Below are positions 11,608 to 14,989 of a DNA stretch of 64,000 bases, in pieces. Location of the stretch: positions 27,725 through 91,724 of the forward strand of contig JALNKA010000003.1 in the NCBI GenBank assembly GCA_023261815.1. Direction: 5' to 3'. Under the pieces are notes generated by a model that was not told the origin of the DNA, ran no database searches, and saw only the letters and a list, made by a program, of their open reading frames with translations. The position numbers and the translations under genes were made by a program. The stretch's first letter is position 1, and each line of letters opens with the position of its first letter. The stretch comes from Candidatus Wolframiiraptor sinensis (GTDB lineage Archaea; Thermoproteota; Nitrososphaeria_A; Caldarchaeales; Wolframiiraptoraceae).

Positions 11608-12312
11608 ATGCCGCTAGCCGCAAAGATCTTCGAGATAAGGGCTGAGACGGCGCTCGAGGAGATAGCTGACAAGCTTATGGGCTACAGGGTCGTCGAGGAG
11701 AGGGAGGAGGACGGCCAATCCTTCGAGCTCATAACGGAGGTTAGGGATCTGGATCTCAAGAGCGATAGGCTCGAGGGCGTGTTCAGCAGGGATAAGCTGA
11801 TAGTCGTTAATCAGCGCGGGAGGCTCGTGCCGGTGCTCAAGACGGTCGAGGCGAGGATAATCTTCAGGAGAGCCGAAGATCTCATGCTCCTCACCGTCGT
11901 TCAGAAGAAGCACTTCGCGAACGCCGTGGCCTCGCTCCTCTCCCACCACCTCTTCCTATCCTATAAGGCAATAACAGAGGCCAGAGTCTCGCCATCAGTG
12001 ATGAGGGAGTTTCATGAGAGAAACCCGGAGGGAACAAAGGTGATATACTTCGACGACCTCGACTTCGTGGACGTCGATAAGCTCGCCCTCTACGGCGACT
12101 CCCTGAAGAACACTGCTCTCTACGAGGAATACCTCAGGCATGGCAAGATCCACTATTTAGTTTATCAAGTCCCGGAAAAAGGTTATGTAATGGGATTAAC
12201 GCGAAACTGTGTAGTAACCTCGTTCACAAAAATACCGATTGATGAGTTCATAAATTATATTGAACAAGTAATTATCCCTTTGATAATCAAAAGTAAAAAA
12301 AGTGAATGTTAG
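11608..12312 (+). CDS. Conserved hypothetical protein; last ~52 codons supplied by an inserted element
   Basis: Host-like codon usage up to ~12153, then an abrupt AT-rich tail; a second copy of the tail lies at 13923-14087. Confidence 0.85.
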   Translation: MPLAAKIFEIRAETALEEIADKLMGYRVVEEREEDGQSFELITEVRDLDLKSDRLEGVFSRDKLIVVNQRGRLVPVLKTVEARIIFRRAEDLMLLTVVQKKHFANAVASLLSHHLFLSYKAITEARVSPSVMREFHERNPEGTKVIYFDDLDFVDVDKLALYGDSLKNTALYEEYLRHGKIHYLVYQVPEKGYVMGLTRNCVVTSFTKIPIDEFINYIEQVIIPLIIKSKKSEC

Positions 12313-12378
12313 TCTAAAGGTAAAAAGGAGGGAAGGGGAAAGAAAGGTGGAGGGGTTGTGTTCCTCCTTTCTTTTTTA
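12313..12378. terminator. Probable bidirectional purine/pyrimidine-tract terminator region
   Basis: AAAAAGGAGGGAAGGGGAAAGAAAGG followed by TTCCTCCTTTCTTTTTT between convergent genes. Confidence 0.45.
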
Positions 12379-13092
12379 TCTATCTTTTTTGTTTGATGAT
12401 ATCTTTTCTCTGAGAGTCTCCATTTTTCTTCGTATAGTGAATCCGACAGCATCATAGAATTTAATTAAATTCTCCTTTCGTCTGATCTCTAAAATGTAAA
12501 TGTGGTCTTGTTTATACTTGTACCATTTTCCTGTTTGTTTGTTAAAGAATGTTGACTTTAGACGTCTTTGGGTTGTGATTGTGGCCTCGATTCCTAAATC
12601 GTTTAATAGCTCTTTAACAAGCTCTAAGAGCGCCTTATTATAGTTGGCTGCAACTATCTCGTATCGCCAACGTTCTTTGACAATACAGCCTTCCGCATCG
12701 AAGAAGGCTCTACATGCTTCTATAGGGTATTTCTTGAGTATATGTCGGACCGAGGTCACGTCCTTACATGCTTCGGCAAGTATCCTGCATAATATAACGC
12801 TCCTTCCAACCACTGTCCAGCATTGATGATTTTTGTCCCAAAACGGTTTATAGGCCCTCCTTTTGCCAAGACTTATTGCAAGGCATTTCCCCCACTCGGC
12901 GGCAAATTCGTAATCCACCGACCTTAGCATTATCCCATAGTGATGGTGCCTAAAATCTATAGTGAAAGCCCCATCACCGAGCCATCCGGCGATGGTGTAG
13001 GAGAGTTCTGGACACTCCACCACCCTATTGTATCGACGTAGTATGGGTTTAACTTCAAAAAGTTTTTGGATAATCCGTTCAGAAGGCATCAT
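12376..13092 (-). CDS. Free-standing double-motif LAGLIDADG homing endonuclease
   Basis: Motifs SYTIAGWLGDG and ACRAFFDAEG; C-terminal F...VGFTIRRK; GAGGTGA SD-like sequence upstream; no intein splicing residues. Confidence 0.88.
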   Translation of the reverse strand: MMPSERIIQKLFEVKPILRRYNRVVECPELSYTIAGWLGDGAFTIDFRHHHYGIMLRSVDYEFAAEWGKCLAISLGKRRAYKPFWDKNHQCWTVVGRSVILCRILAEACKDVTSVRHILKKYPIEACRAFFDAEGCIVKERWRYEIVAANYNKALLELVKELLNDLGIEATITTQRRLKSTFFNKQTGKWYKYKQDHIYILEIRRKENLIKFYDAVGFTIRRKMETLREKISSNKKDR

Positions 13093-13510
13093 TACGTCAC
13101 CTCGAAGAACACGTCCTCGACGGGGTCATAGCATACGTGCGGCTTAGAATTCCAACAGTGCCCATATAAATTCTCCTAGTCATCCTCCATCTCTCTCCGT
13201 CCATTAGCTCGGCTCCCATTCTACCGGCCCCCCTAGCCAGAATCCTCAAAGCCCTCCTCCTCGACCTCGCCGTAAGATACCTCTAAGCGATCGCGTTCAT
13301 CCTCCGATAAAGCCGGCTCCAATCCTCGTCGAAGGCTTCTCCAGGAATTCTCCGATCTGAAGCTGGAGAGTAGATCACCATATCACCCGATAAAGCCGCT
13401 CTATCTCGTTAGGAAGGCCATGGATGCCGAATTGGGAGAGAGGTCAGCGTAGCCAGTATAGGAGGCGTCAAGGGCAGGGAAGCATTGTTGTATTATGTTC
13501 ATCCACCGTG

Positions 13511-13648
13511 ATGCCCGGAATATACGCCATAATAGTCAAGCCGAGAAGCGATCTCGAGATAAAGTATCCATGCAAGGTCAGGATGGAGGATGGAGCGATA
13601 ATAGTGATAGACAGGGAGAGGGCTGAGAAAGTGGCTGAGGAGAAATGA
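13511..13648 (+). CDS. Small hypothetical protein inside the insert
   Basis: 45-aa ORF whose TGA overlaps (ATGA) the next ORF. Confidence 0.35.
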   Translation: MPGIYAIIVKPRSDLEIKYPCKVRMEDGAIIVIDRERAEKVAEEK

Positions 13649-13776
13649 TGCTAAGCGATCCAATACTATTGCTGGTTGAGGCTAATGGGGGCAAAGTGGA
13701 GGGCAGGAGCATTCAGGGGATGATATATCTTCTGGCGCGCGTCCTCAGGTTACCATTATCGCGGGAGTCCTTTTAA
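13645..13776 (+). pseudogene. Truncated fragment, possibly of a winged-helix (YwgA-like) protein
   Basis: MMLSDPILLLVEANGGKVEGRSIQGMIYLL resembles the N-terminus of GR..xQK.IYLL proteins; ends after 43 aa. Confidence 0.35.
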
Positions 13777-13922
13777 GGGTAGTCTCGGAGGCTGTGAGCA
13801 TGCCGAGACTAGTTAAGCTAGTTAACTAGTTAAGATAGAATCATGAAAATAAAAATATTATTCGAGGCGAGCAGGAGCTCGGATAAATTGGCGAAGGATA
13901 TATATCCAACTTTACTTTTTAG

Positions 13923-14087
13923 CACATAGTATTCACGGTTACTGGGACGAATAGGGTCATGGGGCTGACGAGAAACTGCGTGGTAACGTCCTTCACCAAG
14001 ATGCCGGAGTCGGAGTTCATCGAGTACATAGATGGAATCGTTATCCCGCTGATACTCAAGAGCAGAAGGGAGCATGGGGGGGAATGA
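13923..14087 (+). pseudogene. Displaced original 3' end of the 11608 gene
   Basis: Stop-free frame HIVFTVTGTNRVMGLTRNCVVTSFTKMPESEFIEYIDGIVIPLILKSRREHGGE*; host-like codons; TGA overlaps the mvk ATG. Confidence 0.88.
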
Positions 14088-14989
14088 GAGCAGCGGCCTC
14101 AGCCCCAGGCAAGGTGATACTATTCGGCGAGCACTTTGTCGTCCACGGCGCCCCGGCGCTCGTGGCCTCAATAGACCTCAGGGCAGCGGCGATCGTCGAG
14201 CGCGCGGAATCTGGGGGCGTTAGGCTAAGTGATGGATCCAAGGATAATCCGGCGGTGAAGGCTGTTGAACATGTCCTGCGCAGGCTTGGCGCGAGCGCGA
14301 GCCTGATCATCGAGATTGAGTCAAGAATACCTCAGAGCGTCGGCCTGGGCTCCTCAGCTGCCCTTGCGGCATCCTCTTCAGCCGCGGCGCTTCATCTTCT
14401 AGCCGGAAGGCTTGACCTCAACCTGATACTTGAGTCATCGCATGAGGGCGAGAAGATTATTCACTACATGCCGTCCGGCATAGATACCTCGATCGCGACA
14501 TTCGGCGGGATCGGGGTTTACGCGAGATCGAGCGGGTACAAGAAGCTCGACATCGCGCTCGAGGAAATACTCGTGGTGAATACTGGTATGCGGAGGAGGA
14601 CCGGGGATATGGTATTGAGGGTGAGGGGGTTCGCCGAGAGGGAGCCTGAGCAGTTTAAGCAGCTCCTAGATGAGGCTGGACGGATAATCGAGGAAGGGCT
14701 TGATGCGTTGAGGAGCCGTGACTTGGAGAGGCTTGGAATGCTCATGAGCAGGAACCAGGAGCTTCTGAGGGTTGTGGGGGTTTCATCGCCCGAGCTTGAG
14801 GAGGCGATCGCGATGTGCCTGGATGCCGGAGCCTATGGAGCCAAGCTAACGGGAGCTGGAGGTGGAGGTTGCGTGATAGCCGCTGCGGACCCCGATAAGA
14901 TGGACGAAATAATCTCGAGGATCTCAGGAAGATTCGAAGTATTCAGGGTTAGGCTCGGCGTCGAGGGAGTTAGGGTCGAGCGGCCGTGA
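14084..14989 (+). CDS. mvk: Mevalonate kinase
   Basis: SAPGKVILFGEHFVVHG, P.SVGLGSSAA, SGID, GAKLTGAGGGG. Confidence 0.95.
   Translation: MRAAASAPGKVILFGEHFVVHGAPALVASIDLRAAAIVERAESGGVRLSDGSKDNPAVKAVEHVLRRLGASASLIIEIESRIPQSVGLGSSAALAASSSAAALHLLAGRLDLNLILESSHEGEKIIHYMPSGIDTSIATFGGIGVYARSSGYKKLDIALEEILVVNTGMRRRTGDMVLRVRGFAEREPEQFKQLLDEAGRIIEEGLDALRSRDLERLGMLMSRNQELLRVVGVSSPELEEAIAMCLDAGAYGAKLTGAGGGGCVIAAADPDKMDEIISRISGRFEVFRVRLGVEGVRVERP

Follow-up and report, generated by a model that had tools for sequence, protein, structure and literature searches.

A foreign gene ending beside a LAGLIDADG endonuclease gene in a Wolframiiraptor chromosome: a candidate for splicing-independent homing in archaea

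In archaea, homing endonucleases have been described from rRNA introns and from inteins, whose insertion is masked by splicing of the RNA or the protein. Here we analyse a stretch of 64,000 nucleotides (the window, G000:C28:27725-91724) from the genome of Candidatus Wolframiiraptor sinensis, a member of the Caldarchaeales (G000; 1.18 Mb in 33 contigs), in which the same outcome is reached at the DNA level. An insert in a conserved gene (the host gene), which in many relatives directly precedes the mevalonate kinase gene (mvk), brings with it a spare functional ending for the gene that it interrupts, together with a free-standing LAGLIDADG endonuclease gene. The ending carried by the insert is termed tail A, and the displaced original ending downstream tail B. 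Positions are those of the window; G numbers denote genomes, L numbers loci or contigs, P numbers database proteins, X numbers metagenome runs and C numbers contigs of G000.

A gene end supplied by a mobile element is familiar from the Escherichia coli icd gene, where e14 and phage 21 provide a slightly different 3' end and leave the original end downstream. The window resembles this case in having both an element-supplied end and a displaced original. The prophage, however, has an integrase and a shared attachment core, neither of which is present here, where the element spans only 1.8 kb. Closer still are the 'mobile ORF' (mobile open reading frame, mORF) gene hybrids of fungal mitochondria, which the relevant passages of PMC3630166 describe for atp6, atp9, cox2 and nad3 of Glomus, atp6 of Allomyces macrogynus (according to that source the first case), atp9 of Rhizopus and cox2 of Mortierella. 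As set out there, the order is inserted C-terminus, LAGLIDADG or GIY-YIG ORF and native C-terminus, the two copies are 63.5% identical in nucleotides and the insert is foreign. Compared with those passages, the two systems have in common an endonuclease ORF in the 3' part of the gene, an inserted C-terminus in frame, a native C-terminus displaced downstream, a low identity between the copies (60.5% here) and an inserted end that is foreign beside a native end that nests with its own kin. Presence and absence among close relatives are likewise found here (X19 and X7; P0013/P0047 and P0049/P0050). In contrast with the hybrids described in these passages, the host is an archaeal chromosome and not an organelle, the endonuclease gene is separate and antisense whereas the fungal ORFs share the phase or the orientation of the gene, the insert is a composite that includes debris of local repeats, and empty and filled alleles coexist in natural populations with both junctions at one 4-bp point. 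Given its archaeal chromosomal host and its antisense endonuclease gene, the element may be said to work like an mORF without being a member of that group. An earlier note on this DNA, made from the letters alone, had named the mitochondrial elements as an analogue; the resemblance has proved to be very close, and the novelty therefore lies in the host domain and in some details, not in the principle.

Endonuclease genes outside introns and inteins are also represented by seg and mob of the T-even phages ('intronless homing', covered in part by PMC2790892), whose proposed route of spread is cleavage of alleles that lack the endonuclease, together with co-conversion of the flanks, but which are intergenic, bring no replacement gene end and act in mixed infections rather than in a cellular chromosome. 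In Haloferax, a free-standing LAGLIDADG gene in chromosomal glycosylation islands has been proposed to drive conversion of neighbouring DNA, free-standing genes of this kind being mostly known from phages; the portion of the paper concerned with it describes no duplicated or replaced gene end and shows no empty allele, and the gene belongs to another LAGLIDADG family, pfam03161 (PMC5867893). The presence or absence of introns in the rRNA genes of Caldiarchaeum has been ascribed to homing, according to the section of PMC3082918 on these genes. Full-text literature searches found no archaeal or bacterial chromosomal endonuclease that supplies a replacement gene end, in agreement with the earlier note, whose author knew of no archaeal example.

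The insertion, its empty allele and the native gene end

The insertion, its exact limits, its empty allele and the native origin of the remnant downstream are established. A contig of 1101 nt from X19 joins position 12150 to 13924 through TGGT, and its few differences from the window (5 across the 545 nt left of the joint and 19 across the 552 nt right of it) indicate that the empty allele comes from the same lineage. The same TGGT joint occurs in X7 alongside a filled contig (12122-13132) that has the variants of the independent contig L083, the word depths of these two X7 contigs, 355 and 54, not being shares of cells. The runs that contain the stretch are hot-spring metagenomes. The empty allele reads ...AAG ATC TGG TAC ATA GTA TTC... 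(around the junction, ...GGCAAGATC TGGT ACATAGTATTC...) and is an uninterrupted gene of B type. Left and right junctions are one point of this allele, from which exactly 4 bp (TGGT) are missing; the left junction preserves the reading frame and the alignment register of the homologous gene, and the right one (...TTTTTAGC|ACATAG...) has at most 2 nt in common with it. The abrupt switch and the empty allele that the earlier note had expected at this place are thus both real, the former visible as a drop in GC content, but neither lies exactly where it was drawn. The switch had been put at ~12154, while the boundaries are 12150/12151 and 13923/13924, and the predicted joint ...ATCCACT|ACATAG... 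is a few bases off and lacks the TGGT between the flanks.

Misassembly, which the same note had named as a reason to abandon its reading, is rejected by contigs that cross the junctions independently. L083, a metagenome contig of 2536 bp, is colinear with 11849-14388 at 97.3% identity, and both junctions are spanned in X1 (11938-13251, with 0 differences, and 13631-14119) and in X3 (12055-12339 and 13677-14700).

The host gene was found in 41/41 genomes of the order and 35/35 of the family; Pfam, NCBIfam and the PDB contain no relative of it, and the Atlas leads to hypothetical proteins only. Tail B is preceded by an in-frame TAG, and its TGA overlaps the mvk ATG, as in the intact gene of relatives. 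Among the 19 closest loci compared, a B ending (WYIVFTV...MPESEF...) is present in 14, in 11 of which mvk follows immediately with its ATG overlapping the stop. A native 'A-like' ending (WY[LI]VYQ[IV]P...) occurs in two, both from the low-GC genus g5 and with mvk directly behind, and a 'YYLVYQVPG...' ending like tail A in three, namely G003 and G008 of the window's genus and G018 of genus g2. In the other three families 19/19 loci are B-like, and B is therefore the ancestral ending. The remnant in the window is 89% identical in amino acids to the tail of G009, and its non-synonymous divergence (dN) from three relatives, 0.055-0.071 against 0.04-0.05 for the N-terminal part of the host gene (N-part), indicates that it has decayed no faster than the latter. 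The downstream copy had been taken for the original end of the gene because of the TGA/ATG overlap, an identification that the same arrangement in relatives and the grouping of tail B with its own genus bear out.

Origin of the two tails and recurrence of the replacement

Tail A is of foreign origin and tail B is native. The GC content along the window falls from 0.55-0.57 to 0.34-0.36 at about 12100-12400, and the downstream copy stands at 0.521 (N-part and tail A in Table 1). The two tails are identical at 29 of 52 aligned residues, where a hand count had given ~29 of ~51, and at 89 of 147 nucleotides (60.5%). Recounting the identical block of 15 residues (12187-12231 and 13956-14000) again gave 10 of 15 codons that differ, all synonymously, and over the whole alignment codons differ at 19 of the 29 identical residues. 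When the downstream copy was compared with the 64-kb window by tblastn, tail A was recovered at E 1.2e-15, the next-best match having E 0.51. In phylogenies, the N-part follows taxonomy, the window clustering with G007, G002, G009 and P0013, and tail B clusters with the B tails of its own genus. Tail A falls in a clade (starred in the tail tree; support 96/89) with G003, G008, G018 and P0002, and this clade is nested in a larger one (98/97) to which the native tails of the low-GC genus g5 also belong. A tree constrained to unite tail A with the kin of its N-part, a group named after the sequences had been seen, is 24.5 log-likelihood units worse and is rejected (approximately unbiased (AU) test, p 0.0035). 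Separate trees for the two tails, which the earlier note had proposed, thus give them different phylogenetic origins.

The A tails are under purifying selection and old relative to one another, dN among them being 0.08-0.21 with a synonymous divergence (dS) above 1.5 or saturated; for the window's tail A against the others, dN is 0.14-0.21 and dS saturated. G018 has an abrupt break in composition like that of the window, from 0.56 in the N-part to 0.34 in the tail, and the tails of G003 (0.46) and G008 (0.54) look ameliorated in composition.

Tail replacement recurs at the same codon in other species, with one pair switching five codons upstream. In the species of G007, P0013 and P0047 agree at every position of residues 1-181 and then differ at 29 of 59, P0047 having the B tail of G007 and P0013 a third variant. 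In the other pair P0049, the protein of G018, and P0050 are identical over residues 1-176 and then differ at 24 of 54, the switch being the one further upstream (QHGNI vs KHGKI). Since the position of the switch differs between the pairs, the left crossover is variable, which resembles gene conversion; in site-specific recombination it would be fixed. In G008 (L032) and G003 (L033) the host gene is followed, a few bases on, by convergent Ham1-like, Bud32 and Kae1 genes, and in both genomes mvk (L039 in G003) is on another contig with no tail remnant; judged by these gene orders, the rearrangement breakpoint in G003 and G008 coincides with the end of the replaced tail.

The LAGLIDADG gene and the mosaic around it

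By its sequence, the endonuclease gene in the insert is an intact member of the monomeric double-motif LAGLIDADG type. The ORF matches Pfam LAGLIDADG_3 (E 4.7e-13) over its second domain, and an alignment of 15 homologues shows no variation at D40, G41 and D132 and almost none at E134 and G135; D40 and E134 we take to be catalytic-type residues by analogy with D21 and E117 of I-DmoI. The predicted model (predicted local distance difference test (pLDDT) 88, predicted template modelling score (pTM) 0.84) consists of two tandem alpha-beta-beta-alpha-beta-beta-alpha domains, an I-DmoI-like arrangement, and the top Foldseek matches are I-DmoI (E 1.5e-8), PI-PfuI (3.5e-8) and I-Tsp061I (3.1e-7). The intact double-motif gene that had been described between the two copies is hence supported by conserved motifs and predicted fold alike. 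With I-DmoI and the LAGLIDADG enzymes of archaeal introns and inteins the protein would share the monomeric two-domain fold and the acidic residues of both motifs. It differs from them in an identity of only ~18-20% and in a gene that lies outside any rRNA intron or intein, and its target would be a protein-coding gene.

The family is present in 27/41 genomes, with up to 15 matches in one, and many of its members have an N-terminal extension that the window's endonuclease lacks; a search for close relatives in one genome per species yielded only a 34% match in an unrelated archaeon. In G000 a clean insertion of 1356 bp (G000:C12:29234-30589; L030:885-2240) with a 2-nt AT overlap divides a KaiC-like ATPase gene. 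The insertion contains a 277-residue LAGLIDADG paralogue, in front of which stand the two repeat modules that are also found in the window. At the same site G009 has a degenerate LAGLIDADG insertion with a loss of 119 nt, and in G005 and G007 the gene is intact. The KaiC-like gene of G000 has no replacement tail and therefore looks broken. The closest LAGLIDADG copy of G007 is absent at the syntenic site in G002, G000 and G006, and three further copies, with 72-75% DNA identity, are present in G007. The presence and absence of these copies among relatives indicate that the family is mobile. When window positions 12148-12165 are set against L030:878-895 and the empty site of G007, both insertions follow the T of a TGG codon, with ATAG 3 nt later (host gene TGGTACATAGTA, KaiC-like gene TGGGGTATAGAG, 7/12 identical); these shared features may reflect related target preferences or chance.

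Table 1. Features of the insert and of the genes that flank it (window coordinates)
Feature	Coordinates	Strand	Evidence
Host gene	11608-12312	+	ORF of 234 aa
N-part of the host gene (conserved in archaea, function unknown): 181 native codons	11608..12150	+	ORF; GC 0.556; tree follows taxonomy
Whole insert, 1773 bp; the empty allele has TGGT instead	12151..13923		12150->13924 joint in X19, X7
Tail A: foreign, AT-rich last 53 codons and stop, in frame and register with the host gene	12151..12312	+	GC 0.308; tail tree
Spacer between the convergent host and endonuclease genes, T-rich run at its end (+ strand)	12313..12375		Sequence; best Rfam E 0.37, chance level
Free-standing double-motif LAGLIDADG endonuclease gene, 238 aa	12376..13092	-	Pfam; motifs; model; Foldseek
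Fragment of a multi-copy family (303 aa): 5' flank and ~28 initial codons, truncated beside the endonuclease start	13099..13274	-	blastn to C14, C17, C12, C13 at 76-85%
Second multi-copy repeat of G000, with a 74-aa ORF (13424-13648)	13402..13688	+	9 other copies, 75-93% identity
Unique right end: hairpin 13782-13809, TAGTTAA repeats, AT-rich stretch, 12-bp palindrome 13896-13907	13689..13923		Sequence
Tail B: the host gene's own ending, displaced downstream, frame still open	13924..14087	+	TGA overlaps mvk ATG; groups with own genus
Mevalonate kinase gene (mvk), native downstream neighbour	14084..14989	+	GHMP kinase domains

The remainder of the insert is assembled from local material (Table 1). 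The 303-residue family has at least 10 copies or fragments in G000, many at contig ends (G000:C12:672-1580; also on C13, C14, C17, C18, C2, C33, C5, C25 and C10), and searches of Pfam and NCBIfam returned no significant match (E 0.27-0.41), with a weak IS110 hint at E 0.27; the family is probably the main insertion-sequence-like repeat of the genome. The earlier statement that the insert holds no integrase, intein or bulge-helix-bulge (BHB) intron stands, whereas the accompanying 'no transposase' has to be amended in part, given this fragment of a possibly transposase-like multi-copy family. Other copies of the second repeat diverge at 13522 and 13678, and elsewhere in G000 this repeat adjoins the far end of the 303-residue family. 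Its small ORF (74-77 residues in different copies, for example L003:1519-1752; ...IYAIIVKPR.DLEIKYPC.VRMEDGAIIVIDRE...) matches no Pfam or other known family and has been conserved in several of these copies. In a DNA comparison of G000 with 34 other genomes of the family (35 in total), the repeat-derived and right-end parts, which are host-like in GC, occurred in G000 only, except for one fragment in G046, and 13689-13923 had no second copy in any of these genomes, G000 included. What the 34 share with the insert is the tail-A part (74% identity in G018, 73% in G003, short pieces in genera g5 and g3) and that one repeat fragment. The foreign module is thus tail A plus the endonuclease gene. 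At the right end, the copy number of the TAGTTAA repeats (13810-13850) and the AT length around the GGATATATATCC palindrome differ between the window and L083. The AT-rich stretch is followed, ~60 nt on, by an ATG at 13959 that opens the frame of the remnant into the overlapping mvk start, an arrangement that could provide mvk with a new promoter and a coupling ORF.

Explanations for the insertion

We favour, with a probability of about 0.62, the view that the insert is a DNA-level, splicing-independent homing-type element comparable with the mitochondrial gene hybrids; the earlier note had reached the same idea, and the anatomy of the locus, the origin of its parts and the polymorphism of the site support it. 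A site-specific double-strand break would have been made in the native allele at ...AAGATC|TGGT|ACATAG.... The left side of the break would then have invaded a foreign allele of the same gene by homology and copied from it a diverged but functional tail, the LAGLIDADG gene and the DNA behind it, while at its right end the copied DNA would have been attached, with no homology involved, to the opposite side of that break, for which reason the native tail would have been kept before mvk. Because the new tail differs from the native one right at the junction, the filled allele would resist the enzyme. Once formed, the unit would have host homology on both sides (the N-part on the left, the remnant and mvk on the right) and could therefore spread to empty alleles by ordinary gene conversion. 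LAGLIDADG enzymes leave 3' overhangs of 4 nt, the same length as the loss at the insertion point. We infer that the window's own LAGLIDADG protein makes the break, with TGGT as its overhang, and that repair was homologous on the left and end-joined on the right. In keeping with a recent spread, the insert core, tail A plus the endonuclease gene, shows fewer substitutions between G000 and L083 than the flanks (5/939 against 29/769, Fisher p 1.6e-6; tail A has 1 difference in 159 nt), a contrast that may, however, be inflated, since the flanks of L083 are possibly collapsed with those of a commoner empty-allele strain.

It should be emphasized that this last caveat is one of several points that weigh against the favoured explanation, of which the identity of the driver is the weakest link. 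The LAGLIDADG family is multi-copy and the insert contains fragments of local repeats, so another mobilizing agent is conceivable. Among 22 LAGLIDADG loci searched for duplicated flanks, 21 of which could be analysed (one flank was too short), the window is the only one with a long duplication (59 residues, E 5e-18), and the supply of tails is thus no general habit of the family; L045, L046, L057 and L062 have short flank matches only (16-42 residues, E 8e-4 to 8e-7). The A tails of G000, G018, G003 and G008 are synonymously saturated and therefore do not derive from one recent sweep. Behind the foreign tail of G018 lies a different AT-rich ORF with no Pfam family, and no LAGLIDADG gene is found in the 489 nt to the contig end; close to the A-type tails of G003 and G008 there is no nuclease gene, and linkage of the host gene to mvk has been lost. 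As for the empty allele, X19 is an RNA library that may contain DNA, and the shorter side of the X7 joint measures only 29 nt.

It could be argued from several of these points that the tail replacement is real and the LAGLIDADG gene a passenger, the break having been made by the repeat or insertion-sequence-like family, by another nuclease or at random, and the foreign DNA captured by one-sided homologous repair. The 5' fragment of the 303-residue family and the second repeat within the insert, the same upstream module before the paralogue in the KaiC-like gene, the different ORF in G018 and the nuclease-free tails of G003 and G008 would all be accommodated by this account, which we consider rather unlikely but worth serious attention. 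Transposition leaves unexplained, however, why the left junction is homologous and in register and why the same codon is hit again in at least four lineages; the 303-residue family, moreover, lacks a significant family match and is a mere fragment in the insert, and the loss of 4 bp at a single point next to an intact endonuclease gene and a new tail fits a LAGLIDADG cut. A decayed integrase-mediated element, viral or plasmid, which like e14 at icd would have carried the 3' end of the gene on its attachment site and shrunk to 1.8 kb, is improbable. It would share the architecture of gene with element-borne tail, element and displaced native tail, and the AT-rich composition does look foreign. 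The empty allele of the same lineage nevertheless differs by exactly the 1773 bp of the insert, in which (12151-13923) there is no integrase or recombinase ORF or Pfam match, the junctions share no core of more than 2 nt and the crossover position is variable. Nor was a larger element, whose presence with an integrase in relatives would in the earlier note's view have pointed to a decayed provirus, found at the site in 35 family genomes, and tail A and the endonuclease had no match in viral_contigs, phage records or plasmids.

That the gene is really uninterrupted, in RNA because of a BHB, group I or group II intron or in DNA because of assembly chimerism, is hardly credible, even though archaeal LAGLIDADG genes are classically intron-borne and the assembly consists of 33 contigs. 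Tail A yields a complete and conserved ORF, excision of 12151-13923 would leave the frame 4 nt short, and the endonuclease gene is on the opposite strand. No significant Rfam family was detected (best E 0.37), the cofold of the junctions (-23.5 kcal/mol) is no better than that of shuffled sequences (-25.6 +/- 3.5 kcal/mol), and L083 as well as contigs of X1, X3 and X7 have the same structure. Two further candidates were rejected. An intein does not agree with an endonuclease ORF on the opposite strand and a host ORF that ends in TAG at 12310-12312. C-terminal displacement in the style of polymorphic toxins, as in the orphans of contact-dependent inhibition (CDI) and Rhs systems, does not agree with two tails that are homologous to each other and belong to a single conserved protein, cytoplasmic in appearance and encoded in an operon with mvk.

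If the endonuclease drives the homing-type element that we favour, the mobile-ORF strategy of fungal mitochondria works in the cellular chromosome of a thermophilic archaeon as well, and pieces of a conserved gene have a route across genus boundaries, by which single-gene phylogenies and the binning of species could be misled. The locus would then also be a testable system, with both alleles in sampled hot springs, a break point defined to 4 bp and a small protein, the latter a candidate thermostable site-specific nuclease with a presumed natural target. A wider and distinctly more tentative proposal is that the Caldarchaeales maintain an active pool of interchangeable 3'-end cassettes for this one gene, moved across species and genera by break-induced repair. 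The associated nuclease genes would belong to more than one family (LAGLIDADG here, possibly an Hjc-like PD-(D/E)xK enzyme in G018), and a diverged tail would serve as both homology arm and immunity determinant. The window allele, homologous on one side and end-joined on the other, would represent a founding event, and the system the first mORF-type homing outside organelles.

The ORF behind the tail of G018 (L034:1-372, - strand) also occurs in G027 (L086:1348-1848, - strand) and thus in only 2/41 genomes. Inspected by eye, it has an E...D...K pattern like that of PD-(D/E)xK nucleases, and the Atlas lists 'restriction endonuclease (fragment)' as a name and assigns PDDEXK_5 to 15% of one cluster. 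The predicted model is of low confidence (pLDDT 62.6), and Foldseek returned nothing at E <= 0.001, the best match being the Hjc-type resolvase ST1444 (8.6e-3), followed by tRNA-splicing endonucleases. These are leads only, by which the ORF is possibly a nuclease.

In G032, a genome of another family (L072; G032:C1:345500-351200), a frameshifted LAGLIDADG gene lies 2.3 kb downstream of the host gene, behind an SMC-like gene; it is probably a coincidence, as there is no duplication of the tail, and it was set aside. The boundary between host gene and mvk is the site of another insertion in G024 (L036:1180-5557) and G016 (L037), two of the three genomes of genus g4, in which a 4.4-kb phosphotransferase-system cluster (EIIA, EIIB, EIIC, HPr and a fragment of EI) stands between the stop of the host gene and mvk.

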